Source: a virus
Lineage: Duplodnaviria; Caudoviricetes
Length of the DNA stretch: 64,000 bases
Direction: 5' to 3' (one strand)
IMG/VR virus record: IMGVR_UViG_2728369134_000004
Span: 15,310-79,309 of that record
The notes beneath the pieces were generated by a model. It was not told the DNA's origin. It did not search any database and worked only from the letters and a program-made list of their open reading frames with translations. How positions within the stretch are numbered: the stretch's first letter is position 1; each line of letters starts with the position of its first letter. Shown here piece after piece: positions 13,604 through 64,000 of this stretch. The translations under genes and the position numbers were made by a program.

Positions 13604-14011
13604 CTAAATGATACCTTCACGCTCCACGAACTTAATCAGTCGAACAAGTTCAGCATGTTTCTTTTTGATATGACTAGAACTATAATTTACTACCTCTGCT
13701 ATTTCTTCTAACGTCATACCATCCACATATTTCAATTTGAGTATCTGATTTTCTAATCCTCTAAACTTACTAATTAACTTTTTTAATTTATACATATCGT
13801 TCATCTTATGTGCTAATTCATATTCAATCGCTTCAATACGGTTTTCAACTTTTGCACCTTCAGATTCTGCCGTTAAACGTACTTCTCTCAAATCACCACT
13901 AACCCAGCGTCTTAATTCGGCTTTTGTTTTATCTAAGTTGTATTCCAGATAGGCTATGTCTTCTTCTAACTTTTGGTAATCTCTCAGCCAGTTAAACAAA
14001 TGATGATTCAC
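13604..14011 (-). CDS. Late transcription regulator A (ArpU/RinA-like, sigma region-4 HTH)
   Basis: ILKLKYVDGMTLEEIAEVVNYS HTH; position ahead of the late operon. Confidence 0.8.
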   Translation of the reverse strand: MNHHLFNWLRDYQKLEEDIAYLEYNLDKTKAELRRWVSGDLREVRLTAESEGAKVENRIEAIEYELAHKMNDMYKLKKLISKFRGLENQILKLKYVDGMTLEEIAEVVNYSSSHIKKKHAELVRLIKFVEREGII

Positions 14012-14171
14012 CTACTTTCATATTTCCAGATCAACAACCACATTTCCGATTGTCGATAGGTGTCAAAATGTCTTGTTGTTTATTCTTACAACTTGTACAT
14101 TTGTTTTGCTATAATGGATTTACATTGCCATCTGGAAAAGTGACTTGCCCCATCGAGTTGCTTTTCCTTTT

Positions 14172-14294
14172 TTATTTTATGATTCCTGATTTCACAAAAA
14201 TATTTCTCCAAGCTGCAGCAGTCCGTTCTTTATCAATTTCCTTTTGACGATTCAAAATTGCTCTTTTTACATGTTTTTTCTTTCCAGTTCTCAT
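14172..14294 (-). CDS. Small basic protein (DUF3983-like, 40 aa)
   Basis: MRTGKKKHVKRAILNRQKEIDKERTAAAWRNIFVKSGIIK; RBS. Confidence 0.6.
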   Translation of the reverse strand: MRTGKKKHVKRAILNRQKEIDKERTAAAWRNIFVKSGIIK

Positions 14295-14447
14295 TTTTTA
14301 TACTCCCTTTCTTAATAAATTCATTCTAATTTCCGCACAACACGTATAACAGGTTTGTACGCTCGAATAAGAGCTTTTTTATTAATAAGGTCTTATGATA
14401 TTCAGTAGGTTGTTATCGTCTCACAATGAGCAATCTGAGGAGTTAAC

Positions 14448-14660
14448 TTATTCGAACTTTTGTTCTCCGCTAACATTTATCTCACTAACTTCATTTATAA
14501 TGACTCCTTTGTCTACTAAATCATCCTCAGTTCTTTTTAAACGTTTGATTGTATTAATAACTTCTTCTGTTGACTCTGCTTCAACGACAGCTTCATACAC
14601 TTTTAATTCTGTGAAAGTCACATTAAATGTTTTCATTCTTTCTACTCCCTTTCTATTCAA
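14448..14660 (-). CDS. Hypothetical protein (likely starting at MKTFNV)
   Basis: AAAGGGAG RBS before the second Met. Confidence 0.6.
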   Translation of the reverse strand: MNRKGVERMKTFNVTFTELKVYEAVVEAESTEEVINTIKRLKRTEDDLVDKGVIINEVSEINVSGEQKFE

Positions 14661-14711
14661 ATAGCGTTTTTGTTCAAAATAATACTCCTATCCATTTGGA
14701 CACATTTACCA

Positions 14712-14812
14712 GTATTTTTACCAAAAAATTCATGATATGGTTATTTAGTCGAGTACGTCATTACTTGACAATTACCCTTAGGAACTCCGCAGACAAACGG
14801 GGTTTCTTTTAT
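14712..14812 (+). ncRNA. Putative sRNA unit A1
   Basis: GTATT-N14-CATGATA promoter-like; ~70 nt with no RBS-led ORF; GAACTCCG/CGGGGTTTC hairpin plus T-run. Confidence 0.5.
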
Positions 14813-14829
14813 TTAAATAACGATTTTGT

Positions 14830-15060
14830 TTAATTTCTAACTTTTATCACATTAGTTTTAAATGCTTCACCCTTACGGTTAAAAGATACAATATTCATAC
14901 CATGATAATCTCTGTGCCACCGGAAAGTTGGATCTAATCTATTATTAAACTCTCCATCAAACTTTCGTATCGTTGAAATTTTGATATTCTTCATTCCCAT
15001 AAAATTTTCTTCACCTATTTTTGTCATTTGTCTATTTCTTGTATGTCTCATCCGTTCCAT
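14830..15060 (-). CDS. Hypothetical accessory protein
   Basis: GGAGGGG RBS; stop abuts a boundary motif. Confidence 0.55.
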   Translation of the reverse strand: MERMRHTRNRQMTKIGEENFMGMKNIKISTIRKFDGEFNNRLDPTFRWHRDYHGMNIVSFNRKGEAFKTNVIKVRN

Positions 15061-15099
15061 TCCCCTCCATATCTTTTATCACTAAATGTAAATATTAAG

Positions 15100-15232
15100 T
15101 TGTAAATTTAATTTACTTAGTGCTATAATTCGAGAGATCGATAGTTACATTCACTGATCAACCTCATGTAATTTTAATAAAAGTTCTCGAGATTCAGCCC
15201 CTAACAGCGCACCGTTAGGGGCTGAATTCTTT
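15100..15232 (+). ncRNA. Putative sRNA unit A2 (sigma-A type promoter)
   Basis: TTGTAA-N18-TATAAT with TG extension; strong TTCAGCCCCTAAC/GTTAGGGGCTGAA hairpin. Confidence 0.55.
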
Positions 15233-15260
15233 CCAAATAAAGATTTTATTGTACAACTAC

Positions 15261-15350
15261 ACATACCTAAACAACATGCATACATTATGGTGTGTATTCA
15301 TTCAATATAAGTTTTGGTAAGAGAGTTCTTTGGCAAGAGCTCTCTATTTT
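15261..15350 (+). ncRNA. Putative sRNA unit A3 (sigma-K/E-like promoter)
   Basis: AC-N16-CATACATT; AGAGAGTTCTT/AAGAGCTCTCT hairpin plus T-run. Confidence 0.5.
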
Positions 15351-15367
15351 TAAAATAAGAATTTTGT

Positions 15368-16042
15368 TTAGTATTCTGTCGAAGCAATGATACATGGATT
15401 TGTAATATTATCCCGCTTTATTACCCATTCGAATGACCTTAAAACATACGTTTCTCCACCTCTATGAATTACTGGTTCGATTGTGGCTACTCGTTGTTCT
15501 TCGTCAGGTAATTCATCAATGCTGATATGCATTTTGTCTTTCAAACTAACTTCCCCAACAAAATATTCTTCAATTTCCTCCCAATCTATGAATTCCTCAT
15601 AAAAGTTTTTCGCTTCCTCTTCGTTCTTTGCAGCTACCCAATCGTAATCATTCATTTTAAAAACTTTCATCAGTAGCTCTGGATTCTCATAAACATTTCC
15701 TACGACTTCACATTCTTCTGAAACCCAATCAATGTCCTCGTCAATTGGGCTATCCCCTAAATAAAACGAACAATTGCCATACGTTACTTTCCAATGACTA
15801 TAAGTGGTCGCGGTGTTTTCTGGTGTTTCATACAGTGTAGGTCCTTTTAAAATGTCACCTACATAAATTTCTTTGCCGTTTTTATCCTTTATTCCCGTGT
15901 ATGGTAACAATGGAGAATAATATTGATCTTCTTTCCCGCCATTCTTCAAAGTGTCTTTTAAGCTATCAAAGTTCAAAATTTCTTCCCAGCTGTACATGAT
16001 TCGATTTTCTTTACCATATATCCGATATTTAATTTCATTCAT
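15368..16042 (-). CDS. YopX-family protein fused to an extra C-terminal domain
   Basis: EIKYR, YTGIKDKNGKEIYVGDIL, EVVGNVYENPELL YopX motifs. Confidence 0.85.
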   Translation of the reverse strand: MNEIKYRIYGKENRIMYSWEEILNFDSLKDTLKNGGKEDQYYSPLLPYTGIKDKNGKEIYVGDILKGPTLYETPENTATTYSHWKVTYGNCSFYLGDSPIDEDIDWVSEECEVVGNVYENPELLMKVFKMNDYDWVAAKNEEEAKNFYEEFIDWEEIEEYFVGEVSLKDKMHISIDELPDEEQRVATIEPVIHRGGETYVLRSFEWVIKRDNITNPCIIASTEY

Positions 16043-16069
16043 ATCTCATTCTCCTTTTCTGCCAAATAA

Positions 16070-16615
16070 CTATTTTGTACTAATTGACTCCCAATCAAAT
16101 GTTTCTAATATATTCAGTAATCGTTCCACTTTTGGTGCTCGCCATGCCGTCATAGCGTAAGTATGAGCTTTTGAAGTATAGTGGTAGTTATTTAGTTTAA
16201 GATGATTTTTTGCTTCTTCTTTTGTTAAAAACATTGTGTCAGGAACAATGAAACCTTCTTCTTTCATAAAAGCTGTATCAAAGTAACCATCATTATTTAA
16301 ATTACTTTCTACATACTCCCATAAATCATCGAACCTCTCGCTTTCATCATAAATAAGCACCCTTAATTCCTGATCTTCATCAATCTCTTCACTGTAATAT
16401 TCCTCCAAGAACTCTTTCAAATCACTGAACTTATGAAAAGTAACAAGATCACCATCATTAAAGAATCGTTCCTCTTCACCGCTGTCGTATTTCTCATTTG
16501 CTGGAACCATTCTATAATCCTTAATAACCCAAAACCGTGGCGATGCATTTCCGTCAGTTTCCTGTGTAGTTAATTCTTGTTGCAATTCCTTTAAAAATTG
16601 AATATCCTTGTTCAT
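16070..16615 (-). CDS. Hypothetical phage protein
   Basis: 181 aa, RBS. Confidence 0.7.
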   Translation of the reverse strand: MNKDIQFLKELQQELTTQETDGNASPRFWVIKDYRMVPANEKYDSGEEERFFNDGDLVTFHKFSDLKEFLEEYYSEEIDEDQELRVLIYDESERFDDLWEYVESNLNNDGYFDTAFMKEEGFIVPDTMFLTKEEAKNHLKLNNYHYTSKAHTYAMTAWRAPKVERLLNILETFDWESISTK

Positions 16616-16633
16616 TTCCCCGTTCCCCTTTAC

Positions 16634-16766
16634 GAATAATCTTTTTTTACATTACACATACTATCTACAAGTCAACTTCCCATGACTACACTCTTTCAAA
16701 ACGGAGCTTGTTCCTCCGTACTGTTTTGGATCGCGGCAGGTAACTTAGTCACTTACCTGCCATTTT
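16634..16766 (+). ncRNA. Putative sRNA unit A4 (sigma-G consensus promoter)
   Basis: GAATA-N18-CATACTA; hairpins exposing CUUCCC and UUCCUCC; GGCAGGTAA/TTACCTGCC terminator. Confidence 0.6.
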
Positions 16767-16787
16767 CTATTCAAATAACGCTTTTGT

Positions 16788-17177
16788 TTAGTTTTCAATT
16801 AGCACTAACAAGTCATAATTTGATTCAATAAATTCCATGCATAATTTTCTGTTTACGTCGTTTCCTAAACGTTCATAAATCAATAGCATTTCATGTTTTG
16901 TAAAGCTTGTCCCTAATAACTGGTTAAAGCTTTTTAAGATTTTTCTAGATTTATAATCACTCAAACTTTTACTAATTGGTCTTGATAACCAAGCAAACAT
17001 CTTACATATAAAATCCATATGATTTTCTACATCTTCTAATCTGAAATAAAGGTTGCTTCTAGGGTCGAATATCAATTCGTTACTACTATTTACAAAAGCC
17101 TTCGGGAAAAATCCCTGTGTCTTTTTTACTAAGCTTTGTACTTCTTCATTCATTTCTCGTTCCCCATTTCTGTACAA
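16788..17177 (-). CDS. Hypothetical phage protein (likely starting at MNEEVQ)
   Basis: Flanked on both sides by boundary motifs. Confidence 0.7.
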   Translation of the reverse strand: MYRNGEREMNEEVQSLVKKTQGFFPKAFVNSSNELIFDPRSNLYFRLEDVENHMDFICKMFAWLSRPISKSLSDYKSRKILKSFNQLLGTSFTKHEMLLIYERLGNDVNRKLCMEFIESNYDLLVLIEN

Positions 17178-17192
17178 AATTCAAATTTTGTC

Positions 17193-17675
17193 TTACTTTA
17201 CGCCCGTACTTCCAAATCCACCTGTCCCACGATCACTACGTGATAGCTCGTCTACCTCAACAAAATTAGCTGTTTCGACTGGCGCTATGACACCTTGGGC
17301 GATGCGATCTCCCTTTTTAACCACATATGTCACACTCTTGAATATTTCATGTTCATCATTGATACCTAATGTAATTGAATTACCTGGATATGATATATTG
17401 CTGACTATAACTCCTACCTCACCTCTAAAACCGCTATCCGCCGTACCGAGCACTACTCTAAGAAACGTTTTACGTGAAATTCCGCTTCTTGGTCTCACCT
17501 GAAGTTCAAATCCTGGTGGTATTTCGAATGCCAATCCTGTAGGGATTACTTTCGTTTGCCCTGGCTCAATAATTGTGCCTTCCGCTGCTACAAGATCAAA
17601 ACCGCTATCTCCTGGCTTCGCATACTTAGGCAAATCCACATCTTTCACTCGCTTAATCTTCACTCGTAAATTCAT
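17193..17675 (-). CDS. dut: Trimeric dUTPase
   Basis: SGFDL, RPRSG, GTADSGFRGE, RIAQ, RGTGGFGSTG motifs. Confidence 0.96.
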   Translation of the reverse strand: MNLRVKIKRVKDVDLPKYAKPGDSGFDLVAAEGTIIEPGQTKVIPTGLAFEIPPGFELQVRPRSGISRKTFLRVVLGTADSGFRGEVGVIVSNISYPGNSITLGINDEHEIFKSVTYVVKKGDRIAQGVIAPVETANFVEVDELSRSDRGTGGFGSTGVK

Positions 17676-17679
17676 TCCA

Positions 17680-17856
17680 TTACGCCCCTTTTAATGAACT
17701 TTCAATTCGTTGCTTACGTGTAAGTAAATCTTCTAAATTACCTTCTGTTTTCTTTTTCTCAAGCCCTAACATATTTAAATGTAGTTTCATGTTGCTTATA
17801 TCTGAATTAACACTTTCTAATTCTGACTCCAGTTGAACCCTTGTTTCTTTCTTCAT
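17680..17856 (-). CDS. Small coiled-coil protein (58 aa)
   Basis: MKKETRVQLESELES...; GGAGG RBS. Confidence 0.55.
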   Translation of the reverse strand: MKKETRVQLESELESVNSDISNMKLHLNMLGLEKKKTEGNLEDLLTRKQRIESSLKGA

Positions 17857-17866
17857 GCAATCCCTC

Positions 17867-18121
17867 CTACAGTCCTAAATGCTCCATGATCTTACCGATG
17901 TTCTCATCGAAACCAATGTATGGTTTCCCCTCGATAATAAACGTTGGTAATGAACTAGATTTATATACAGCTTGTAATACATGCAGGTTGTTTTTGTCCT
18001 CATCCACATTTCTTTCAATCAATTCCACTTCATGTCCTATCGGTAGGTTGTTCAACATTTCTTTTGCTCTTTTGCATTTCGGACAAGAATTTCCAGTGTA
18101 TATAATGATCTTAGTTGCCAT
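17867..18121 (-). CDS. NrdH-like glutaredoxin
   Basis: IYTGNSCPKC...SLPTFII...IGFD. Confidence 0.88.
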   Translation of the reverse strand: MATKIIIYTGNSCPKCKRAKEMLNNLPIGHEVELIERNVDEDKNNLHVLQAVYKSSSLPTFIIEGKPYIGFDENIGKIMEHLGL

Positions 18122-18187
18122 TCTCTTCAGTCTCCTTCACTTCTGCTAATAATTGAGTAATTTCAAACGTGCCATGCTCTGTATATT

Positions 18188-18391
18188 TCATTGTTCTTCC
18201 TCCCTGTGATCTGCTAAAATATCCTCTAATGTGATTGCCGTATTTTCTAATGTGTGCCACTGTCCTTTATGAAATCCCGATAATCCTAAATCCCCACTAT
18301 CAAAAGCTTTGTCAGCTTCTTTTCTGCTCTCTACTGCCGATTCACGTAATCCTCTTATAAGCTCTTCAATCGCTTCTCTCATTTTCTCCAT
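18188..18391 (-). CDS. Hypothetical protein
   Basis: Operon packing. Confidence 0.55.
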   Translation of the reverse strand: MEKMREAIEELIRGLRESAVESRKEADKAFDSGDLGLSGFHKGQWHTLENTAITLEDILADHREEEQ

Positions 18392-18506
18392 CTCCTTTTA
18401 GTAGCCCCGCCAGTTCCTCGCAACTCCCTTCAAACAAGTCGCGCCCATCCGGTAGCTTGTATATGTGATTATCGATTAATTTGTTGATTAAAACGTCTTG
18501 CTCCAT
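18366..18506 (-). CDS. FbpA-like small protein (46 aa)
   Basis: MEQDVLINKLIDNHIYKLPDGRDLFEGSCEEL resembles the LI..L...G.YK...R.LYE..L.EL pattern of Fur-regulated basic protein A. Confidence 0.55.
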   Translation of the reverse strand: MEQDVLINKLIDNHIYKLPDGRDLFEGSCEELAGLLKGDGENERSD

Positions 18507-31576: not shown

Positions 31577-31840
31577 TTAGATACCGCTTCTCGTTTTTTT
31601 TGATAAATGATTTTTCACAGATTCTTTAGCTGTCTTTAAATCGATTTTCTCATTTGGAATAACATCCATGACATTTGATTTAAACAAGAAATGTTGTTTC
31701 TCTTCAGTTTCTACATAAATCATGTACTTATCTCTACCAACTACCTTACCCTTCAAAGGCTTTCCATTACTTAATACAAATGTACATGGCATTTCATAAT
31801 GTTCTAAATACATTAAAATACTATCAAAAAACATATGCAT
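31577..31840 (-). CDS. hfq: Hfq-family (Sm-fold) RNA chaperone homolog
   Basis: CTFVLSNGKPLKGKVVGRDKYMIYVETEEKQHFLFKSNVMDVIP aligns by eye with Hfq Sm1/Sm2 (VTVFLLNGFQLRG...FDNFTVLL...KQQLIYKHAISTFAP). Confidence 0.8.
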   Translation of the reverse strand: MHMFFDSILMYLEHYEMPCTFVLSNGKPLKGKVVGRDKYMIYVETEEKQHFLFKSNVMDVIPNEKIDLKTAKESVKNHLSKKTRSGI

Positions 31841-32080
31841 ATACTTCATCCCCCTTTGAAACAAGTATAACAAGAAAAATTAGATAATAATATTAACCAT
31901 TTAAGCACTTAACAACTTAATAATTTCACGTACTATATCCGATTGATAAAACCAAATTCAGCAGTAAGGCCTATTCTACCATCCCCATACATAATAAAAA
32001 CCCCCTAAATAGGAGGTTTAGGAATAACAAAGTACTAGGGTGCATATAACTTTGCTTTAAAGGGACAGGGATGTCCGCTT

Positions 32081-41064: not shown

Positions 41065-43527
41065 TTAACTAATTAATTTTTGAACTAATTTTTCTAGGGC
41101 TTCCACACGTGTATTCATACTTTCCATATCAGCTTGATGGCTTTCTTTTAATGCTTGGATTTCTGCATCATGCTTTTGATCTAATTCTTGAACGGCTGCC
41201 GTAAGTATTGATAATGTGGCATAATCTTTTATTCCATCCTTCTCGGGCGTTGTAAATATATCATCCGTTTCTTCAGCAATTAAACCGTAATACGTTTCGA
41301 TATCAGCTGTTGTGTAAGGTTCTACGCGGTCTGCCGGTTTATTCATTCGCATTTGGTACAGATCATACATATCCTTTTTCAGAACATATTTTTTCACTTT
41401 CAATCCTCTTATTTTTTCAAGTGGAGAAAATGGAAGGTCATGTATAGATGCTTTAATTTTTTCTGTCGATCTGTTTATATGCTCTATGGCATAAGAATTT
41501 TGTTCTGCCCACAAGTTTGTATCTGAACGAATTCCCCCATGTGCGGTTATCTCAGATACTTCTAGCCCTCGAAATTCATTACCGAATACATTTTTTATTT
41601 GCAGTAATTTATCGTATCCCTTTGCTGTGGACGAACGTATCATGTGATTTCCACCCAAAGTTAGATCATTATCGCCGCTATTATTACGCTGCACTTCTAC
41701 AACGGTTTTGCCTGCATGGTTCATAGAAACACCATGTTCACCATCTACAACAAGAGAACCCTTAGAATTAAGCCACATACTTGTTTGTGCTGTGATGCCT
41801 ATGTTCCCTTGTGCTGTTAAGCGGATATTACTTTCAGCACCATTTAAATCTATAAAACGTAAATAAAGTCCACCGCCATCCTTATAAATGGTACCGACAT
41901 TCCGCCCAGTCCCATCCCCCTGACCGAATGTAATGTAAGGATTAAAAGTGCTACTGTTGTATTCATTCTCAAACCCCATTATCATTTTAGGGACACCCTG
42001 ATTAACAAACTTCAACACTTGATTCTGCATATGAATATGTTCTTTAGTGTTACTAGTTTTGATGGTCATACCTTCAAGTAATCCTGCAATTAACCATTCG
42101 GCTTTTACTTTACCAACCAGATCAATAAGTTCTGAATTTATAAGTACACTTTGCGGAGTTATATTTAATTCGGAAGCAATATCGCCTTTCCCGACTTTTG
42201 CCTTTATTTCTCTCGCGTTAACATCTAATGTGGATGATAATTTTTCCATCTTCTGATTGACAGCTTGGGCATTTAAACGTATTGATTCATCTGTTTGCTC
42301 AAGACTTGTCTTCATAGCAATTAATCTTTCATTAAAACCACTTGAAGTATCTTCTACCTGCTTTTCTAGTAGCTTCAACGCTTCGTTGCTTGCTTTATCC
42401 CATAGGGAATTTCGAATCTTATTGTATAGCTTGAGCATTTCTTCTCTTGTATCGATGACCTCTATATAATCACCAAACACATATTTATTTTCAGACGGAT
42501 TCGTAAATGATTCATCACCAGCGATAGCGCGAGCGATTAGATACAATTCCGGTGTAAACCCTGTATCTTTAATCCTTATAATGTCACCTTCTGCAACTTC
42601 CTCGTGTGATAATCCAAATATCTTATCAAGTGCAATTGCATCGACTTCATATTGAACAGTCGAATTCATCCGTTTTTTAAATTCAATTTTCATCAGTGCC
42701 ATTAATCGCTCTGGTGTCATGTTTTGATCTTCTGTTTCAGGTGTATAAAAACCAAATTTATGCTGACCGTTTTCATTCCAACGCTGAAAGGCTGAACTAT
42801 CGACAATATAAGGGAGACCATTATTAATACTCTCCACCGTTATTAATTTGTCATTTTCCCCTCTTACAAATCCAACTAATGCCGTACAAATGTTACTCGA
42901 GTTTTCTCTGCGGACAATGCCTTTTAAATCTTTACCTAAAGTTACCTCTTTACCAGTGTCTTTTCCCTGTCTTTGCACCATATCTACATAACGGCCAACA
43001 ATTCGAGAACCGATAACTTCAACTCGAAATACAATTTCCAAATCAAAAAGAGCAGCAATGTCCTTTAGAAATTTTAACGGATCAATAAACTCATCGATTG
43101 TCATGGTATGAAAACCAGAATACTCAATAAATCCTATTTCATACTTCGTTCCAGCTAAGGCAATAGAAGTTAATTCGCGTGCCGTTTTCGATTCGAATCG
43201 TTGCGGTTTAATAACCCCTGCCTTTTTTAATAAAACCCATTCTGCAGAAGCATATACCGTAAGGGAACGGCCATCTGAACTTTTAGCTGTATCATCGATT
43301 ACATACGGGACTATACGCCCGCCACTAACTTCTTTTAGCACTAAATTTTGTTGCATTAATGTTGCTGCTTGTTCAGTTCCATCGAAAACAGTGAAATCAA
43401 GTATATCTACATTGTTCTTAATTTCCCAATGACGTTTATCGTCCCAATAATCACTTGATTGGAGAGCAGATATAATTTCACCTGATTGGAAATCTGCAAT
43501 ATGAAGCGTTCCGCTAGGCTTTCTCAT
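41065..43527 (-). CDS. Tail spike/Tal protein with C-terminal intramolecular chaperone
   Basis: Prophage tail endopeptidase-like N-terminus; S74-like STEKIK...GLIAEE plus coiled coil. Confidence 0.85.
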   Translation of the reverse strand: MRKPSGTLHIADFQSGEIISALQSSDYWDDKRHWEIKNNVDILDFTVFDGTEQAATLMQQNLVLKEVSGGRIVPYVIDDTAKSSDGRSLTVYASAEWVLLKKAGVIKPQRFESKTARELTSIALAGTKYEIGFIEYSGFHTMTIDEFIDPLKFLKDIAALFDLEIVFRVEVIGSRIVGRYVDMVQRQGKDTGKEVTLGKDLKGIVRRENSSNICTALVGFVRGENDKLITVESINNGLPYIVDSSAFQRWNENGQHKFGFYTPETEDQNMTPERLMALMKIEFKKRMNSTVQYEVDAIALDKIFGLSHEEVAEGDIIRIKDTGFTPELYLIARAIAGDESFTNPSENKYVFGDYIEVIDTREEMLKLYNKIRNSLWDKASNEALKLLEKQVEDTSSGFNERLIAMKTSLEQTDESIRLNAQAVNQKMEKLSSTLDVNAREIKAKVGKGDIASELNITPQSVLINSELIDLVGKVKAEWLIAGLLEGMTIKTSNTKEHIHMQNQVLKFVNQGVPKMIMGFENEYNSSTFNPYITFGQGDGTGRNVGTIYKDGGGLYLRFIDLNGAESNIRLTAQGNIGITAQTSMWLNSKGSLVVDGEHGVSMNHAGKTVVEVQRNNSGDNDLTLGGNHMIRSSTAKGYDKLLQIKNVFGNEFRGLEVSEITAHGGIRSDTNLWAEQNSYAIEHINRSTEKIKASIHDLPFSPLEKIRGLKVKKYVLKKDMYDLYQMRMNKPADRVEPYTTADIETYYGLIAEETDDIFTTPEKDGIKDYATLSILTAAVQELDQKHDAEIQALKESHQADMESMNTRVEALEKLVQKLIS

Positions 43528-56516: not shown

Positions 56517-57789
56517 CTACTTTACATAGTTGTTATAGAAGTAATTTCCTGCATAGCGTGCTTCATCCAAACTGTGGTTGTATGCGTCTATCGGAGAACC
56601 ATTATCTTGCCGTACATACATACCGATTTCTTTTAAGAAATGATAATGATCGTATTCGTCACACTCGACAATGTAAAACTGCTCATTCGTCATTAAGTTC
56701 TGAAGTCTTTCAATACCAACTTCCATTCCTTTAGCAGAGCTACTGACATCGTGTGCATTGTTATCTGCACCTGTCGTATTAACCCCTAATAAGTGAAGTT
56801 CTTCTCTCAATGACTTACACGCAGGGTCAACAAACACTTCTGTATAGCGCATTTGGAATCGTCTTACGCACCATTCTATAAATAATTTGATTTCTTTTGC
56901 GTATACAGACATTGCTTTTACTTGTCCTGTTTCTGCTCCACTATGATAGTAGTGAGCGACACGCATCAATCTGAATTTATCTTTGAAACGAGTTACGATA
57001 TTGCAAGCACAACTTGTAGCGTCAGATTGACCACCATCAGCAGTGAAAAACATTTCGTAACGATCACCGAGTACCGCATGTTCAACATTCTTATTCATAT
57101 CAAACATGGAGTAGATAACACCCTGAGGCATTACACGCTTTCCGTACCAATCTCGTTCGAGTAAATACGGATTCTTAGAAAGTACATCATATATTTCCTG
57201 CTTACGTTGCTCTGATAATATCGGATTGTCATTAGGTGTCCAATGAGTCCAACGTGTGTTTTGAACATCGAATACTTCCGATATAACAGGATGGTTAGGA
57301 GCAGGAGGGTTTAAATCCGCTAAATGGTAACGGTCCTGCGCTGCAAAGGTACGACGGAAACATTCTTGAATCATGCCCATATTAAGAAGGTTAATCTCAC
57401 AAAAGACTACACTTCCAAGCGACATACCCGTTATGGCGCCGACACTGTTACTTTTCCCTCCACCCTTGTAAAAGACTCGCTTAATTCCTTTTGGTGTGTG
57501 TACCTCAAGGTGTGAACCGAGTTCATTATGCTTTATTTCTGCTAAATCCCCAAATATATGAGCCAATCCAGTCCCATCGCCATCTATAAATAAACGCTGC
57601 GCTTGTTCCTGGTTATACGCTACGATTAAATGATTATCATCTCTAGTATTCGCGATGTATCTTGCGTATCTAAAGTGACCAGCTGTGGTCTTTCCTGATC
57701 TAGGGAGTTCCTTCGTTAACTTCTAACGAATAATTAAAAGGTGCTCTAATTATCTGCAACTGTTTATCGCTGAATTTAATCTGAGGAAT
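56517..57789 (-). pseudogene. terL: Terminase large subunit B (PBSX type) with a 1-nt insertion in Walker A
   Basis: GAA GGA ACT CCC TAG; deleting one C (57703-57705) gives EGTPRSGKTT in frame with ORF 56517-57566. Confidence 0.85.
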
Positions 57790-58717
57790 CGGAACCACCT
57801 CCATCATCATTAACCGCACCTATTAAAGCATCCAGTAATGAAGTATCTTTCGTTTGACCACGTAACTTCTTAGCACGTAATTTAGTAAATTCAGTATCTG
57901 CCTTAACTTTCTCGACCTGCACCTTTTGCATTTCTTGGTTCATTCTGTGGCGCTCTTTCTCAATTTGCTTTTTGAAGTTGTCAGGAACTAAATCGAAGTA
58001 CTGAGATAATTTGTCTAGAGCCTTCATTTTGTCCGCGAGTTTAACTGACACACCGTCCTTACCTTGTTTCACCTCAGTAATTATGGAACCGTCAACGGTA
58101 TCAGCTTCATGTAAATCTACATAATTGACGATACGGGTTATTTCTTTCCCTGATTCATCTTTCATAGGACCATAAAGTCCCATAACAGGCACTTCCTTCT
58201 GACCAAAAGTCACATAGTTAGTAATATCAGCAAAGGCAATCTTAATGTACTCTTTCAACACATCCATCGCTTCTACAAATACATTTTCAACTAACTCACC
58301 TTTAAGCTCTTTTATATAGGAAGAAACTCGTTCACGCCTTAGCAATCGACTTGCCTGCACATGAGCTCCATCTTTGGAATATCCTGCTTTCAATGCAGCT
58401 TGTGTACCATTGAAGTATTTCACGTAATACAAACAAAAGAGCCGTTCCTTTTCGGTCAGCTCTTCATCTTCTAAAATTTCTTTTAGTTTTTCTTTCGTTT
58501 TGGGATTTTTAACATTAGTAACGCTCCTTTTCGCAATAGTAACGTTACCATTCATTTGCTCATCCCATTTATCTTGTGATTTCCACTTTCTAATTTGCGA
58601 AGGCTTGAGGTTTAACTTAGCTGCAATATCAATAAGTGGCTTCTCACCTTTACTTGCTTTATATATTTCAAATGCTTTGTCACGATCTGGGCTTCGTTGC
58701 CTAGCCATATTCACCAC
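57776..58717 (-). CDS. terS: Terminase small subunit B
   Basis: RQRSPDRDKA HTH; LTEKERLFC...NGTQAALKAGYS; DKMKAL. Confidence 0.92.
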   Translation of the reverse strand: MVNMARQRSPDRDKAFEIYKASKGEKPLIDIAAKLNLKPSQIRKWKSQDKWDEQMNGNVTIAKRSVTNVKNPKTKEKLKEILEDEELTEKERLFCLYYVKYFNGTQAALKAGYSKDGAHVQASRLLRRERVSSYIKELKGELVENVFVEAMDVLKEYIKIAFADITNYVTFGQKEVPVMGLYGPMKDESGKEITRIVNYVDLHEADTVDGSIITEVKQGKDGVSVKLADKMKALDKLSQYFDLVPDNFKKQIEKERHRMNQEMQKVQVEKVKADTEFTKLRAKKLRGQTKDTSLLDALIGAVNDDGGGSDSSD

Positions 58718-60422: not shown

Positions 60423-61395
60423 AAAAAAGCCATCACCGAAGTGACAGCTCTTTTACGGCTTATAAAAATATTAAAGGGGATGGGAGAAATTCACGTTCGT
60501 ACATAAGGGGATATGTTCATGTGAATTCAAGGTCAAGATTACTCTCAACCTTCTCCAAGCCACCGCATCGACTAGTATGGCTACACGCCCTGTGTTCAGT
60601 GACTGGGAGAAGAGCAAGAGCTTCCTATATCTCTTTCAGCACTCATACGTTGCTTCTCTTCTCGTTTATACTCCGTAGAGTCGGAATGATTCGTTGCTCG
60701 AGTCGAGTCATCCCTGTTTGATCAATCTGCGCTCAGTTGCGCCGGGGAGCGAGTCCCAAAATAAATGAAGGTATCCATAACCTCTTTCAACATACAGTTT
60801 CCTATATGCTCAAAGAGAGCTAGGGACTCTCTTATAAAGGATTTTTAATTTATATCAAGACGTATGTGTTTCTTCCGACGCCTTGTTTGAACCAGCACAT
60901 GCATTAGACGGAGGGGACCGTTCAGTTGTACTAGCTCAAACAAAGAGCGGAAGCTCTCTGCCTAACGAAAGATGTGAGTAATTCGTTAAAAGTGTAAATC
61001 ATGTCGTCCGAACCGGTGAAGTGAAGCCTATTTTAATATTTGTTTTCTTTCCATAAACGCGATGTTCATTTAATCATAAATAAACCACCCCATTCCATTT
61101 CCAGAAACAAATAACAGAGAGTAATAGACTTATATTCACTATCAACCCAGAGGACGCATCTGAGTTGAATACTAAATATAATAGAAACAGCATGACGAAT
61201 GCGAGTTATCTCACACTCGCCACGCTGGAATATGTCATTGTTATACATTCATTGGTCTTTTCGTCTTAACGCGGGTTCTTACCGCCTTGCCCGCCCTATT
61301 ATGCGGTATACGTTACCGTGACATTCTCGCATAAGAACGTTTCACTGATAGGTGTACTAATCCTCTTCGATATGCGGTTGTCAAAGAGCTTGTAC
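60423..61395 (-). ncRNA. ~1 kb structured non-coding late leader / RNA cluster
   Basis: Many hairpins that pair better on the minus strand (G-U pairs, GAAA loop); boxA-like 5' end; terminator at 60423-60454. Confidence 0.65.
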
Positions 61396-61471
61396 ATATA
61401 ATTTATCGTTTTTCCCATTTGCAAAAACTCCCCAAAAAATATGCTATTTCTCTGCGTTTTCTCTGCCATTT

Positions 61472-61843
61472 TCAAATGATTCCTAATGTAGTAGCGATCA
61501 GTTTAATTGCACTTTTCTTCTTCTCATAAAAGTATGAGTTCTTCATCATCAGTTCGTTTTGTACGAATGAATCTTTAACTGGCTTATTATCTAAGAACTT
61601 CATAGTAATAATGTTTCTTTCGTCTTCATCCAGAATGTTATTTAACGCTTTTTCAATTTGTTGTACCTTCATCCTACTCGTTACCCTTGAATCACGTAAT
61701 TCAGGGAATAAACTGATTCCTTCTTGCTCCACTTCATTACTAAACCGCATCTTAAGCGCTCTATATTCTTTTAAAATACTTACTACTTCCTTTTGTACTT
61801 TCTTATCATCGATAGCCGGTAATAATGTTAATTGTCTCTCCAT
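61472..61843 (-). CDS. ArpU-family late transcriptional activator B
   Basis: LDEDERNIITMKFL...FYEKKKSAIKLIATTL. Confidence 0.88.
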   Translation of the reverse strand: MERQLTLLPAIDDKKVQKEVVSILKEYRALKMRFSNEVEQEGISLFPELRDSRVTSRMKVQQIEKALNNILDEDERNIITMKFLDNKPVKDSFVQNELMMKNSYFYEKKKSAIKLIATTLGII

Positions 61844-61982
61844 GAAGGAATCCCCCTATTTCTGAATTTGTTTTTTAACATCACGTAAGGTACGTGAAAT
61901 TTTACTATCTCTTTGTTGAATAAGGGAAACATGCTTAGTAAAGTAGCCCCCACCAATCTACTCTGCATGGTTCCATTATTCA

Positions 61983-62174
61983 TTAAGCTGTTGTCTTCCT
62001 ATAAAACGCCGCTATACGTTTCTCTTCATCGTGAATTCTCCATCCGTTGTCTAAATGATTCATTAGCTCCTTGTACGTAAATACATCGAAATTCCATACA
62101 CGTTGTTTATCTCCAAAACCATCTTCATTACGGTGCAACATGAACTCTCTTGTACCTTTGTATTTTGGAATCAT
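61983..62174 (-). CDS. Hypothetical protein
   Basis: RBS; operon packing. Confidence 0.55.
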   Translation of the reverse strand: MIPKYKGTREFMLHRNEDGFGDKQRVWNFDVFTYKELMNHLDNGWRIHDEEKRIAAFYRKTTA

Positions 62175-62188
62175 CTACTCAGCTCCCT

Positions 62189-62575
62189 TTATTTTCTTAC
62201 CCAACCTTTCTGCTTGTCCTTCATAACAACAACTAACTCCTGTTTATAGCGATATTCGAACATTTTCTTCATATACGGAAAGCGATCATTAGCATAGCCT
62301 TTAACATCAATTACTTCCTGTGTTCCATCCTTATAAGTAACAAGGAAATCAGCTGTAAATTTCCAATCTCTGCGCTTCTTTCGCTTGCCATCTCGTGTAG
62401 TAATATAAAACCCTTCAAGGAGCATATACTGAGGTTGCAGTTCAATTTCGACAACCTCAGGATTACTCTTTAGGAATAGGTAATACTCCGCTTCTGTTTT
62501 ACTATCAAACTCAATTCCTAGTGCGACTGTTTTTCTACTATTAATACGGCCTGTCTTCTTTTTACGTTTGAACAA
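62189..62575 (-). CDS. DUF1064 PD-(D/E)xK nuclease-like protein
   Basis: GIEFDSKTEAEYY, ELQP, TADF, IDVKG. Confidence 0.88.
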   Translation of the reverse strand: MFKRKKKTGRINSRKTVALGIEFDSKTEAEYYLFLKSNPEVVEIELQPQYMLLEGFYITTRDGKRKKRRDWKFTADFLVTYKDGTQEVIDVKGYANDRFPYMKKMFEYRYKQELVVVMKDKQKGWVRK

Positions 62576-62591
62576 CTTATATCCTCACTTT

Positions 62592-62765
62592 CTATTCCAT
62601 TTGTTCTTTACACTCTTCAAGGAAATCAATAACTTCCTGCACATGCTCCCTTGTTGTCATACTCTCCATCACGTATCCTGCATCGTTATAAACATTAACC
62701 TTATCCCCTGTAAACTCCATCCCGCACATTCCGTCTGCACCTAATAGCTTTACGTTACCTTCCAT
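62592..62765 (-). CDS. Small hypothetical protein (57 aa)
   Basis: MEGNVKLLGADGMCGMEF...; GAGG RBS directly after a boundary motif. Confidence 0.6.
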   Translation of the reverse strand: MEGNVKLLGADGMCGMEFTGDKVNVYNDAGYVMESMTTREHVQEVIDFLEECKEQME

Positions 62766-62892
62766 TCTTTTAACCTCGCTTTCTATTCAAAGGATTATTT
62801 TGTTTAAATCTTCCTTAAATCTTATTGTTACTCCTTAACACACAAACGAATTCCTGTATAATACAATTTAGTAATTAATAGGAGTGTTAAAT

Positions 62893-63057
62893 ATGCCTGA
62901 TACATTAAGAATCATTATTTATATCATTGTAGTAGTTGGTGCATTTGCTACTTTGATCAAAGAGTTTAAAAAACCTCAAAAAAGTATCTTTTTGATTTTG
63001 TTCAATTTGTTAATTCTCATAGGATTTACATATTTACTAACAGATAAGTTGATGTAA
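62893..63057 (+). CDS. Small two-TM protein (54 aa, antisense moron)
   Basis: AGGAGTG RBS; MPDTLRIIIYIIVVVGAFATLIKEFKKPQKSIFLILFNLLILIGFTYLLTDKLM. Confidence 0.6.
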   Translation: MPDTLRIIIYIIVVVGAFATLIKEFKKPQKSIFLILFNLLILIGFTYLLTDKLM

Positions 63058-63087
63058 TTTACATAGTAAATAATCTCTTCCTCCCCT

Positions 63088-63200
63088 GAATAAAACTCAA
63101 TATTCCGTCCATACTGTGAATGGAGGAATTTTTATATACCCATTAATTCCTCCCTTTCTTTAAGGGTTGGACAGTTAGTTTCCGCTAACTGTCCTTTATT
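63088..63200 (+). ncRNA. Putative sRNA B1 (sigma-G-type promoter)
   Basis: GAATA-N17-CATACTG; UUCCUCCCUUUCUUUA; GGACAGTTAG/CTAACTGTCC terminator. Confidence 0.6.
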
Positions 63201-63306
63201 ACCATAACTTTGTGCATACTACTTATAAGCTGCTTTCTTAACAGTGTTGGCAGCCCGGAACCTTTTGTCAAAATGGAGCGGTCAGCTTTTGCCGGCTGCT
63301 CTTTTA
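63196..63306 (+). ncRNA. Putative sRNA B2
   Basis: TTATT-N14-CATACTA; CUUUCUUAAC; GAGCGGTCAGC/GCCGGCTGCTC terminator. Confidence 0.55.
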
Positions 63307-63531
63307 TCGTTTTGGATGACCACATGCTTCTGTATAACTCCAATAACTTTTACAATCAGTTGAATTAGGTGTCATTTTGAAGTCTGCTAAGTCTTCCGAT
63401 GTACACTCTCTAGAAGTAGGACGACTTGGAGAATACATATTCCAGTAACATTCTGTACAACTACAAGTTAAATCTTGATTCCCTTGCACTTCGGCCACTT
63501 TTTAAAAAAATGCTTCAAATTCATCGATCAT
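63304..63531 (-). pseudogene. Cys-rich small gene with an in-frame stop at codon 10
   Basis: GGAGG RBS precedes MIDEFEAFF*K, in frame with ORF 63304-63498. Confidence 0.45.
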
Positions 63532-63545
63532 ATACATTCCTCCTT

Positions 63546-63652
63546 GAATAAATCCTCAAACATTGTCCATACTATAAATACATTTAATTATTGAACTTCC
63601 TTCTTAACGTTTTTCTGGAGAGCAGTTAGCTTTTGCTAGCTGCTCTTTTTTC
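63546..63652 (+). ncRNA. Putative sRNA B3 (sigma-G consensus promoter)
   Basis: GAATA-N17-CATACTA; CUUCCUUCUUAAC; GAGCAGTTAGC/GCTAGCTGCTC plus T6. Confidence 0.65.
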
Positions 63653-63676
63653 AAATACTAATTAATTAACACAAGC

Positions 63677-63768
63677 GCATTTCAGACAAACTTCGTATGA
63701 TATGATGTATTCCTTTCTTTTAGAAAATGAAACTCGTCATGGGAGCACTTTTATGAAGTGCTCTTTTT
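63677..63768 (+). ncRNA. Putative sRNA B4
   Basis: GCATT-N14-TATGATA; UUCCUUUCUUUUAG; GAGCACTT/AAGTGCTC plus T5. Confidence 0.55.
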
Positions 63769-63802
63769 GGCTTTTAAACTAATACAAAATGAAATTTTTA
63801 TA

Positions 63803-64000
63803 TTAATTACTTTCATCCCTCATAACCCAATTCAATCTCATTACTACTTGGTCCAAAATTCCTATTTGTTTATTAACACCATCACGATATTCCTCACTAT
63901 GAATTCTTGAAAAGCCATTTTGGATCCGTTTTAAACCTGATTTTCTACGTTCTAAATCAGTAATAAGCTGTTTAACTTCTTCAGATTTCAAACTGCACAT
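63803..64000 (-). CDS. Hypothetical phage protein (at the window edge)
   Basis: ORF track; stop abuts a boundary motif. Confidence 0.55.
   Translation of the reverse strand: MCSLKSEEVKQLITDLERRKSGLKRIQNGFSRIHSEEYRDGVNKQIGILDQVVMRLNWVMRDESN

Follow-up and report, generated by a model that had tools for sequence, protein, structure and literature searches.

Four short cassettes, B1 to B4, lie on the plus strand at positions 63088–63770 of the window (the whole 64,000-nucleotide stretch of phage DNA analysed here), each consisting of a promoter-like site, a 40–80 nt ORF-free body and an intrinsic terminator. Cassette anatomy, strand, family relationships and diversity can all be read from the sequence, and indicate a real and apparently undescribed family of small-RNA cassettes in B. 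cereus-group phages. Taken as a whole, the best explanation is that a B. cereus-group temperate phage carries B1–B4 as autonomous small-RNA genes ('sRNA morons'), a reading we consider on balance probable.

The units occupy gaps in a minus-strand phage early operon, approximately 1.3–2.3 kb upstream (in the sense of that operon) of a gene for a late transcriptional activator (61472..61843, minus strand; phrog_248 'transcriptional activator', E 9e-28). The flanking minus-strand ORFs have PHROG matches that mark them as real phage genes; B1–B4 are thus antisense to this operon, as a first-pass annotation of the DNA had proposed. Each unit is located between the stop codon of one minus-strand gene and the SD of the next, so that no coding sequence is overlapped and pairing in cis would span only ~70 nt of spacer. 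The motif GAATA-N17-CATACT occurs three times in the window, always on the plus strand, compared to 0.06 expected, and three or more occurrences were seen in 0 of 100 shuffles, which excludes chance for this main motif. A terminator scan of 61400–64000 returned four sites (0.8 expected), all on the plus strand, three of them being the ends of B1, B2 and B4. The units display two features expected of independent small-RNA genes, a same-strand terminator with a U-tract 40–120 nt after the promoter and no translatable ORF; inside B1–B4, no plus-strand ORF of 25 aa or more preceded by an SD was found. The Hfq gene mentioned at first pass exists, ~31 kb from the units.

The plus-strand island opens with a sigma-A-like promoter, TTAACA-16-TATAAT (62835..62862; 11/12 matches), and a small two-helix membrane ORF (62893..63057, 54 aa from ATG or 57 aa from a GTG at 62884; phrog_8028, E 2e-12). 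The scan found no terminator between the stop codon of this ORF and the B1 terminator, the latter also being the first terminator downstream of the ORF. The B1 promoter-like site, GAATA-N17-CATACTG (63088..63116, located by string search with shuffles), belongs to a 44-bp block that shows ~97% identity among phages that otherwise differ. Body and terminator follow at 63121..63200 (predicted fold -28.0 kcal/mol, z -5.6), and the predicted RNA contains a hairpin GGAGGAAUU/AAUUCCUCC, a single-stranded CUUUCUUUAAGGGUUG and a terminator at 63169–63194 with a T run behind it. B2 retains a -10 box, CATACTA (63215..63221). The TTATT-N14-CATACTA reported for it at 63196 is present as quoted, the 'TTATT' being the remnant of a 13-nt deletion that took out the GAATA box. 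Relatives keep this box, and an RNA-library contig has 13 extra nt behind 63197. The B2 body and terminator (63226..63305) are predicted to form a hairpin GCUGC..GCAGC with UUUCUUAAC in the loop, then a terminator at 63276–63301 and a T run.

Between B2 and B3 the ORF list places a Cys-rich small ORF of the early operon (63304..63537, minus strand). Here an in-frame TAA at 63504–63502 splits an upstream SD+ATG from a GTG ORF at 63498..63304, and a homologous C-terminus is visible at another locus (L050). B3 has the best sigma-G-type match of the four (GAATA-N17-CATACTA, 63546..63574), conserved at loci L002, L003, L012 and L013. Its RNA (63578..63652) is predicted to combine an unstructured 5' part carrying UUCCUUCUUAAC (63597–63608) with a terminator, GAGCAGUUAGCUUUUGCUAGCUGCUC, at 63620–63645 followed by a T run; this hairpin was missed by the terminator scan and folds at -22.4 kcal/mol with z = -5.3. 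The B4 promoter-like site, GCATT-N14-TATGATA (63677..63702), had tentatively been called sigma-E-like together with GTATT-N14-CATGATA at 14712. Both strings exist. The B4 site is of a different, weaker type, and relatives carry AC-N17-CATATAATA in its place. The predicted B4 RNA (63705..63772) has UUCCUUUCUUUUAG at its 5' end and a terminator at 63741–63765 followed by a T run. The other prophage of the window carries one more such cassette (16634..16770, plus strand; GAATA-N18-CATACTA, terminator hairpin ~16737–16763), with a ~100-nt body antisense to minus-strand genes and with promoter and body matching clusters from other loci.

The family is very large and was found only in B. cereus-group phages and prophages. 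Its near-constant parts are the promoter (G-H-A-T-A, 17 nt, n-ATACT-A/G) and the terminator hairpin, while the body is highly variable, with 70 clusters among 228 bodies; these statistics refer to mutually related sequences at loci chosen by one exact 22-nt terminator word. Of 145 unique terminator-anchored units, 79 score at least 7/9 for GHATR-N16-18-nATnnTR and 41 more are listed with GAATA/GAATG-N17-AATA[C/A]TG. Conversely, 289 of 313 unique promoter-anchored 175-mers contain a plus-strand terminator, compared to 123 of 313 in a permissive shuffle control. Promoter and terminator are therefore coupled, whichever of the two is used as the anchor. The first-pass view of discrete, mutually homologous promoter-to-terminator cassettes forming a diversified repertoire is thus borne out across many phages.

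In 10 of 15 annotated phage stretches, a late regulator annotated as ArpU-type or sigma-like is found no more than ~1.5 kb downstream of the units, as in the window. Calling the coding strand from summed ORF lengths gave no usable answer, with 54 of 202 units left ambiguous for both flanks, and purine skew, calibrated on the window, was used instead. By this measure both flanks are opposite-strand coding in 161 of 225 unique units and same-strand coding in 4. The idea that the late activator itself reads these promoters was rejected: the minus strand of the window has no copy of the motif, and units occur with ArpU-type and sigma-like late regulators alike. In phage PHBA67-J a 37-codon CDS has been called under the units, and such short 'hypothetical protein' calls may be spurious.

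No description of these units was found in the literature searched, the exact promoter and hairpin words occurring in 0 of its papers; supplementary sRNA lists of B. cereus-group RNA-seq studies lie outside this search and might include some of them. Rfam 15 gave 0 matches at gathering scores over the whole window. The best plus-strand match in 62800–64000 was SurA, over B1/B2, at 17.6 bits compared to a gathering score of 100 (E 0.036). Contigs from RNA libraries cover the region in 4 of 4 runs, these being unstranded Logan metatranscriptome contigs without defined ends or levels, for which DNA carry-over is possible. They break at the repeated promoter (~63104–63117) and terminator (~63620–63650), and neither their uncovered stretches nor their depth figures are counted as evidence here.

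Transcription of the units as such appears likely; which sigma factor would read the promoters is less firmly indicated. The sigma-G consensus comprises a -35 box G-H-A-T-R, a 17–18 nt spacer and a -10 box C-A-T-n-H-T-A. B1 and B3 both carry GAATA at -35, B2 has no such box and B4 has GCATT; at -10, B3 and the 16634 unit agree at 7/7 positions, B1 at 6/7 (CATACTG) and B4 does not match, leaving B2 with a -10 box only. The sigma-G reading offered at first pass for B1 and B3 fits B3 exactly and B1 nearly; B2 is without its -35 box, and B4 has another promoter type. Across the family the -35 boxes are GAATA, GCATA and GTATA. Among the 79 best-scoring units the -10 box reads CATACTA in 35 cases and AATACTA in 17, while AATACTG accounts for the majority of the 41 units with score 6. 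The latter is the commonest promoter class, comprising the commonest B1 relatives, and departs from the sigma-G -10 consensus at 2/7 positions, having no C and no final A. In phage McSteamy a GerPA/GerPF-family gene is located directly upstream of the units on the same strand. This gene is preceded by CATATACT, a string given for the -10 region of the sigma-K promoter of csfB in PMC4383634. Upstream regions of SASP genes in one B. thuringiensis genome show G-[C/T]-A-T-n / 17–18 nt / [C/T]A-n3-TA in 4 of 7 cases when read by eye. The strict sigma-G pattern matched 0 of these 7 regions, so the yardstick is a loose one. As judged from these motifs, sporulation control of the units is plausible but unproven, and we would place a sporulation sigma factor as their driver a little short of probable.

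The same cassettes and RNAs could alternatively be read by vegetative sigma-A from a weak TTGAAT-18-nATACT promoter, serving as maintenance or immunity sRNAs in lysogens or during infection in the manner of lambda OOP, with sporulation irrelevant. A T does precede the G of the -35 box in 41 of 64 cluster representatives, and the two -10 positions that matter most to sigma-A, A at 2 and T at 6, are retained. Furthermore, the class A units with AATACTG would offer sigma-G a poor -10 box, and the neighbouring plus-strand ORF of the window has a near-consensus sigma-A promoter of its own. The match itself is mediocre, however, at ~8/12 by eye, with an 18-nt spacer and without a TG in the extended -10 position, and a sigma-A scan requiring at least 9/12 matches picked up none of the four promoters. 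GAATA, GCATA and GTATA at a fixed 17-nt spacing suit the forespore-type box better than TTGACA, and the spore gene of McSteamy sits in the same island as the units. We therefore regard vegetative transcription as possible but rather unlikely.

That an RNA of the plus strand is the product is a point on which several lines of evidence converge. At least six T are present in the 9 nt after the hairpin in 136 of 145 units, whereas a comparable run for the other strand is seen in 3 of 145. The consensus hairpin contains a U·G pair on the plus strand that becomes a C/A mismatch on the minus strand; over all stems 323 G·U were counted versus 17 C/A, the units being mutually non-independent. Plus-strand RNA is also predicted to fold better than minus-strand RNA by 4.8–7.4 kcal/mol for B2 (-26.5 versus -19.1), B3 (-22.4 versus -16.1) and B4 (-18.9 versus -14.1). 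An SD+ATG occurs on the plus strand in 2 of 289 units. A plus-strand RNA is thus indicated by T-tracts, G·U pairs and the absence of ORFs.

Were the minus strand the functional one, the units would be cis-acting spacers of the early mRNA (leader ORFs, or hairpins that sequester the SD, process or stabilise), and the plus-strand T runs would only stop stray antisense transcription. The reverse complement does contain an SD+ATG with a 3–9 codon ORF in 75 of 289 units compared to 39 with shuffled bodies (e.g. MGCLQY*, MGI* and ..VLTEY*), the SD of the B1 mini-ORF falls inside a hairpin in the predicted fold, and the promoter abuts the SD of the next minus-strand gene at many loci. Yet the other 214 units have no mini-ORF and the reading frame varies among class A units; a leader-peptide role was set aside on this count, as it fits only the 75. 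The G·U pairs of the hairpin turn into mismatches on this strand, the same unit adjoins unrelated genes on either side at different loci, and its left neighbour is a plus-strand gene in the window and at L006 and L014. Since a minus-strand role would in addition leave the conserved -35 / 17 nt / -10 arrangement without function, we consider it improbable.

A purely DNA-level role, in which the units are conserved linkers for the swapping of gene blocks by homologous recombination and their likeness to promoters and terminators is incidental, is more improbable still: the 44-bp promoter block and the 26-bp hairpin are indeed 97–100% identical between phages with different flanking genes, class A promoters are joined to class C bodies in hybrids (L111, L068, L032) and the hairpin is occasionally flipped (2 stems among 289 units, and L050 and L135), but recombination needs neither the one-sided T run, the G·U asymmetry and the unpaired pyrimidine runs described below nor a fixed box spacing, which, under a search pattern that required the G-H-A-T-A form, persists with both boxes over 64 clusters of unrelated 17-nt spacers, and recombination is expected at conserved functional sites anyway, possibly as a side effect rather than a purpose.

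In the units, here read as autonomous small-RNA genes, the body is enriched in unpaired pyrimidine runs. Pyrimidine runs of at least 9 nt are present in 57% of bodies compared to 15% of same-strand control segments, and CCCC in 23% compared to 6%. In predicted folds these runs are 73% unpaired, compared to 59% for the bodies overall. A small hairpin before the terminator keeps its C-rich loop while its stem is extended by varying pairs (CCG/CGG, CCA/UGG, CCAA/UUGG). When 22 hairpin regions were aligned with MAFFT, the 5-bp core stem proved almost invariant and the shorter loops were misaligned, so that pair counts would be of little use. The CU-rich strings reported for B1–B4 at first pass are all in place, as are the two GAATA-N17 sites of B1 and B3. 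What had been described as a 'shared seed' is a common pyrimidine-rich character rather than a single conserved sequence.

The sequence makes one partner of such RNAs certain by perfect complementarity, namely the intergenic stretch of the polycistronic early mRNA of the phage itself. Pairing with other ribosome-binding regions, as proposed in the first-pass annotation, received no support within the 79-kb record, where the best duplexes of the four bodies with 284 ribosome-binding regions are no better than those of shuffled bodies (B1 -29.1 versus a shuffled mean of -28.7, with B2–B4 similar). A 24-nt target pattern searched against one B. thuringiensis genome had 0 matches at up to 3 mismatches. 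An 18-nt pattern gave 2 matches with 2 mismatches compared to 1 for the control, i.e. chance level; of these, one is the cis copy and the other, a lead only, falls in the start region of a membrane-protein gene.

In the mechanism we propose, each unit would join a host-type promoter (G-H-A-T-A / 17 nt / n-ATACT-A/G) through a non-coding body to a strong intrinsic terminator, and would be inserted backwards between genes of the distal early operon, immediately ahead of the gene for the late activator. Each would yield a plus-strand RNA of 65–85 nt whose pyrimidine-rich stretch stays unpaired, in many cases as the C-rich loop of a hairpin. These RNAs may pair with purine-rich ribosome-binding regions, host mRNAs in trans being possible further partners. 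A sporulation sigma factor, of sigma-G type for B1, B3 and the 16634 unit, may read the promoters and so produce the RNAs in the forespore, where they could damp the progress of early transcripts to the late activator or adjust spore physiology. Silencing of lytic progression by the units is, in our estimate, doubtful. More speculative again is the notion of a modular, swappable library of dormancy-specific guide RNAs. Here a constant forespore-type promoter and terminator scaffold would present a ~40-nt hypervariable anti-ribosome-binding-site segment, made only in the developing spore, that holds the lytic cascade before the late activator and/or retunes host translation, so that the phage could travel into the spore and out again.

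Little is understood of how temperate phages keep silent, or take over, during host sporulation. The answers known to us for phages in sporulating hosts involve Spo0A-repressed promoters and phage sigma factors, and we know of none that involves RNAs. If the proposal is correct, widespread phage RNA genes with spore-type promoters immediately before the late-gene switch would make the question of the phage in the spore directly testable. The constant scaffold and variable body would likewise show modular sRNA evolution at work in nature in Gram-positive bacteria. On a modest reading, too, the cassettes account for many gaps in the early regions of B. cereus-group phages, and they merit an RNA family model.

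Several known systems share individual features with the units. The type I toxin-antitoxin antisense RNAs of Bacillus prophages (bsrG/SR4, txpA/RatA) have their own promoter and terminator, but no convergent hydrophobic toxin ORF of 30–60 residues overlaps the units described here. Minus-strand ORFs inside the units are of 0–17 codons, and the hydrophobic 54–57 aa ORF beside B1 is upstream on the same strand, not antisense. RsaE/RoxS (Rfam RF01820) resembles the units in exposing C/U-rich stretches in loops or single strands ahead of the terminator, stretches which in RsaE/RoxS pair with Shine-Dalgarno regions. A separate RsaE-like gene (60423–60530, minus strand, by likeness to RF01820) is located in the same prophage as B1–B4, which themselves gave no match to RsaE at E up to 10. 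The B. subtilis sRNAs SurA (Rfam RF02377), SurC and CsfG are transcribed from promoters of sporulation sigma factors, CsfG being forespore-specific. They are chromosomal, single-copy, conserved host genes, whereas the units are phage-borne and have the weak SurA match as their sole Rfam likeness.

AgvB and AsxR, the anti-sRNAs of enterohaemorrhagic E. coli prophages, act in trans on host RNA networks; they are Gram-negative, Hfq-dependent and transcribed from sigma-70 promoters. Like the units, they form small-RNA families that recur in equivalent positions across many related prophages, and to our knowledge none has been reported to combine a constant promoter and a constant terminator with a variable body. 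Phage lambda OOP RNA and P22 sar RNA are short antisense transcripts, each with a promoter and an intrinsic terminator of its own, that reduce expression of the early transcript they overlap. B1–B4 share this organisation as short predicted RNAs with promoter and terminator, antisense within a temperate-phage early region. However, OOP and sar overlap a named target, in its coding region or at its start site, whereas the units fill intergenic spacers only. In further contrast to OOP and sar, the units are present in up to four or more copies per phage, occur in dozens of body variants and have promoters that resemble the sporulation type rather than the housekeeping type.

The four cassettes B1-B4, each consisting of a promoter-like site, a short ORF-free body and an intrinsic terminator, are located at 63088-63770 on the + strand of the window, whose 64 kb form the end of an IMG/VR provirus record of 79.3 kb. 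They lie 230 nt from the record end, in a region that is part of a B. cereus-group siphophage. ORFs on the - strand match phrog_12106 (63803..64000), phrog_7853 (62592..62765), a Holliday-junction resolvase family (62189..62575) and a late activator (61472..61843; phrog_248 'transcriptional activator', E 9e-28), while the small terminase subunit is matched at 57776..58717. Hence, the - strand order runs from distal early genes through the late activator to late genes, and all four units are indeed antisense to the early operon, as the first-pass annotation had proposed. Of 15 annotated phage stretches examined, 10 have, as in the window, a late regulator (annotated as ArpU-type or sigma-like) at most ~1.5 kb downstream in the operon sense. 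A small Cys-rich - strand ORF between B2 and B3 (63537-63304) has a good SD and ATG (63537/63531), is broken by an in-frame TAA at 63504-63502 and resumes from a GTG at 63498; the break could be a nonsense mutation, read-through or a division into two ORFs. A homologous C-terminus occurs in another phage stretch (L050). Between the two prophage blocks lies an Hfq-family ORF (31577-31873, - strand; PF17209, 40 bits; phrog_13793, E 1e-57).

Every string quoted in the first-pass annotation was found at its position in the window. GAATA-N17-CATACT occurs three times, always on the + strand, compared to 0.06 expected, and none of 100 shuffles gave three. The third exact copy (43118-43145, + strand) is located within a - strand tail gene. 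A terminator scan of 61400-64000, in which 0.8 sites were expected, returned four, each on the + strand; B1, B2 and B4 end at three of these. The B3 hairpin was missed by the scan and has a folding energy with z = -5.3. Five terminator-like sites, again all on the + strand, were found in 13900-18500 of the other prophage. The TTATT ascribed to the B2 promoter is present but represents a remnant rather than an intact -35 box: GAATA is located 17 nt ahead of B2's CATACT in MY192, PfEFR-4, LY4 and McSteamy, and in one RNA-library contig the box is restored by 13 additional nt after 63197. As the B1 terminator is the first to follow a small membrane ORF of 54-57 aa (62884/62893..63057, + strand; phrog_8028) with a near-consensus sigma-A promoter, B1 may double as the 3' end of this transcript.

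BLAST searches of phage records gave 19, 31 and 37 records that match some part of the region. All are from Bacillus phages except SpaA1; this phage is listed under Staphylococcus and shares its virus species with Bacillus phage BceA1. Among phages with differing neighbour genes, a 44-bp block containing the B1 promoter is ~97% identical and the B3 hairpin (26-30 bp) 100% identical, while the 35-50 nt between promoter block and hairpin vary from phage to phage. The exact 22-nt hairpin word was found in at least 120 stretches in IMG/VR and at least 120 in species-representative genomes; among the 80 genome matches listed, the record title is Bacillus (cereus-group species or Bacillus sp.) for 75, 'Paenibacillus sp. 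102' for four and 'Bacillaceae bacterium' for one.

All family figures refer to loci selected by one terminator word and to sequences related to one another: of 145 unique terminator-anchored units, 79 score ≥7/9 for a promoter of the form GHATR / 16-18 nt / nATnnTR, 41 others have GAATA or GAATG, 17 nt and AATA[C/A]TG, about eight more carry the same promoter as judged by eye, and most of the remainder are 3' boundaries of + strand protein genes using the same terminator. Anchoring on the promoter gave 313 unique 175-mers, with a + strand terminator in 289; since the permissive finder likewise reports a terminator in 123 of 313 shuffled controls, the stem lengths of 11-14 bp weigh more than this count. 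The median distance from presumed start to stem end is 69 nt. Clustering separates the promoter windows into 64 groups whose spacers are unrelated; outside the fixed pattern, they display an A after the -35 pentamer (49/64), a G three nt ahead of the -10 heptamer (45/64) and a C/T-rich upstream flank. The 228 unique bodies form 70 clusters at 70% identity. Hybrids joining one class's promoter to another's body were seen in three stretches (L111, L068 and L032), and RNA-library contigs contain three further bodies between the constant blocks.

The sigma-G consensus, established from ssp genes and later regulon studies, is G-H-A-T-R, 17-18 nt, C-A-T-n-H-T-A. The match to this consensus is complete for B3, as it is for the unit at 16634 in the other prophage, and for B1 except the last base; B2 retains the -10 box only, and B4 is without a match. 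Relatives of B4 have AC-N17-CATATAATA at the promoter place, presumably closer to the sigma-K type, and also contain TATAAT. Across the family the -35 boxes are GAATA, GCATA and GTATA, all with fixed 17-nt spacing, and the commonest class carries the -10 string AATACTG. The same promoters may also be read as sigma-A sites (TTGAAT, 18 nt, nATACT; ~8/12 matches). As a yardstick for forespore promoters we used seven SASP-family genes of one complete B. thuringiensis genome. The strict sigma-G pattern was found upstream of none of the seven; on visual inspection, G-[C/T]-A-T-n, 17-18 nt, [C/T]A-n3-TA is present at four, and CATACTA lies further upstream at two others, which means that genuine forespore promoters in this clade are looser than those of the units.

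The spore-gene context lends some weight to the sporulation promoter reading. In the Wbeta-like phage McSteamy, gp50 (1571-1786 of stretch L014, + strand) belongs to the GerPA/GerPF spore germination family (PF10676, E 8e-20), is antisense to the early operon and is the gene immediately upstream of the units, in the same orientation. Ahead of gp50 stands CATATACT, the string that PMC4383634 gives as the -10 box of the csfB sigma-K promoter in B. subtilis. In other prophages, GAATG-N17-CATCCTA precedes a 51-aa DUF4021 ORF whose terminator belongs to a second family (hairpins GAGCAC..GTGCTC or GAGCGC..GCGCTC; 205 unique matches), many of which are preceded by CATACAATA-type boxes. A recurrent + strand motif, roughly TTCAAA-nn-A-nn-ATTTTGTTTAA, is positioned just upstream of - strand SDs or after + strand terminators (window 62780-62815, ~14655, 14815, 15350 and 16770; phage or prophage stretches L002 2250, L003 2090 and L014 1445), often ahead of this second kind of + strand cassette, with its CATACAATA-type box and GAGCGC/GAGCAC hairpin. 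The first prophage contains two further + strand cassettes of other classes, with promoter-like sites, at 14712-14807 (GTATT-N14-CATGATA; terminator 14780-14807) and ~15225-15345 (ACACATACC..GCATACATTATGG; terminator 15320-15345).

The 'shared seed' initially attributed to the units does not correspond to any single sequence; what they have in common is a pyrimidine-rich character. Runs of ≥9 pyrimidines occur in 57% of bodies compared to 15% of control segments taken from the same strand 250-900 nt away, TTTCT or CTTCT in 66% compared to 28%, and CCCC in 23% compared to 6%. Minimum-energy folds of 262 predicted RNAs place a second hairpin in 234 and CCC in a non-terminator loop in 78, with pyrimidine runs 73% unpaired versus 59% for bodies overall. 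In the commonest class, UUGUUCCCCCU is presented by a 5-bp stem (UCUCC/GGAGA), lengthened in variants by G-C, A-U or AA-UU; other classes keep the C-rich loop on a different stem.

On the + strand, 136/145 units have a T-run after the hairpin, and a comparable run exists for the - strand in 3/145. A U·G pair in the consensus stem becomes a C/A mismatch in - strand RNA; over all stems, 323 G·U stand against 17 C/A oppositions, counts dominated by one inherited pair. Folding energies for the + and - strands are -28.0 versus -27.4 (B1), -26.5 versus -19.1 (B2), -22.4 versus -16.1 (B3) and -18.9 versus -14.1 kcal/mol (B4). Purine skew, calibrated on known window blocks, assigns both flanks as opposite-strand coding in 161 of 225 unique units, one opposite-strand and one ambiguous flank in 48, and both same-strand in 4. 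RNA-library contigs, from four libraries, are assemblies carrying neither strand nor ends. SD and ATG on the transcribed strand occur in just 2/289 units. The main alternative, which we consider improbable, is that the - strand is functional, the reverse-complemented bodies providing an RBS, start codon and ORF of 3-9 codons. Many bodies do resemble this arrangement: the B1 - strand has AUG GGU AUA UAA in the hairpin loop with the SD buried by the same hairpin, and the commonest class gives MGCLQY*, others ...VLTEY*. However, such a mini-ORF is present in only 75/289 units versus 39 with shuffled bodies, its frame varies among units with a common promoter, and one unit type adjoins unrelated genes, or a + strand gene, in different loci. 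These points argue that the mini-ORFs are a by-product of a body complementary to a ribosome-binding region, and some may be translated.

The predicted + strand RNAs are a perfect complement of the early polycistronic mRNA spacer just before the next gene's RBS. Hence, the most economical mechanism would be pairing with this mRNA that triggers its cleavage or changes its translation, and/or interference of unit transcription, running head-on, with early transcription heading to the late activator. Trans action on purine-rich start regions would be equally compatible with the anatomy. No trans target above chance was found in the ribosome-binding regions of the 79-kb record or in one B. thuringiensis genome. 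AAGGAAGGAAGTTCAATCATG, from the start region of a gene for a membrane protein (locus L266; genome G001, C1:3048212-3048229, - strand), is complementary to the B3 body at 16/18 positions (21/24 by eye), in a search that gave as many matches as the control pattern, and as a B3 target is only a lead.

No Rfam family reaches its threshold in the window, no description of the units was found in the literature searched, and the exact promoter and hairpin words occur in no paper searched. An RsaE/RoxS-like sRNA gene (60423-60530, - strand) lies within ~1 kb of sequence that contains no ORF, downstream of the late activator, scoring 52.2 bits (gathering score 79; E 4e-8) against the full Rfam model with both C-rich boxes and a terminator. 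RNA-library contigs accumulate there, with loose ends at 60452 and 60491 showing that part of the depth derives from another locus having only the 40-nt core in common, probably the host's own gene. Antisense RNAs of phages and sRNA families of prophages have both been described before; judged from sequence, what is new here is a hypervariable body framed by a constant promoter and terminator, the occurrence of several units together, their location ahead of the late activator and the putative spore-type promoters. B1-B4 are not members of the RsaE/RoxS family, but share the design of such regulators, an exposed C-rich loop or pyrimidine run.
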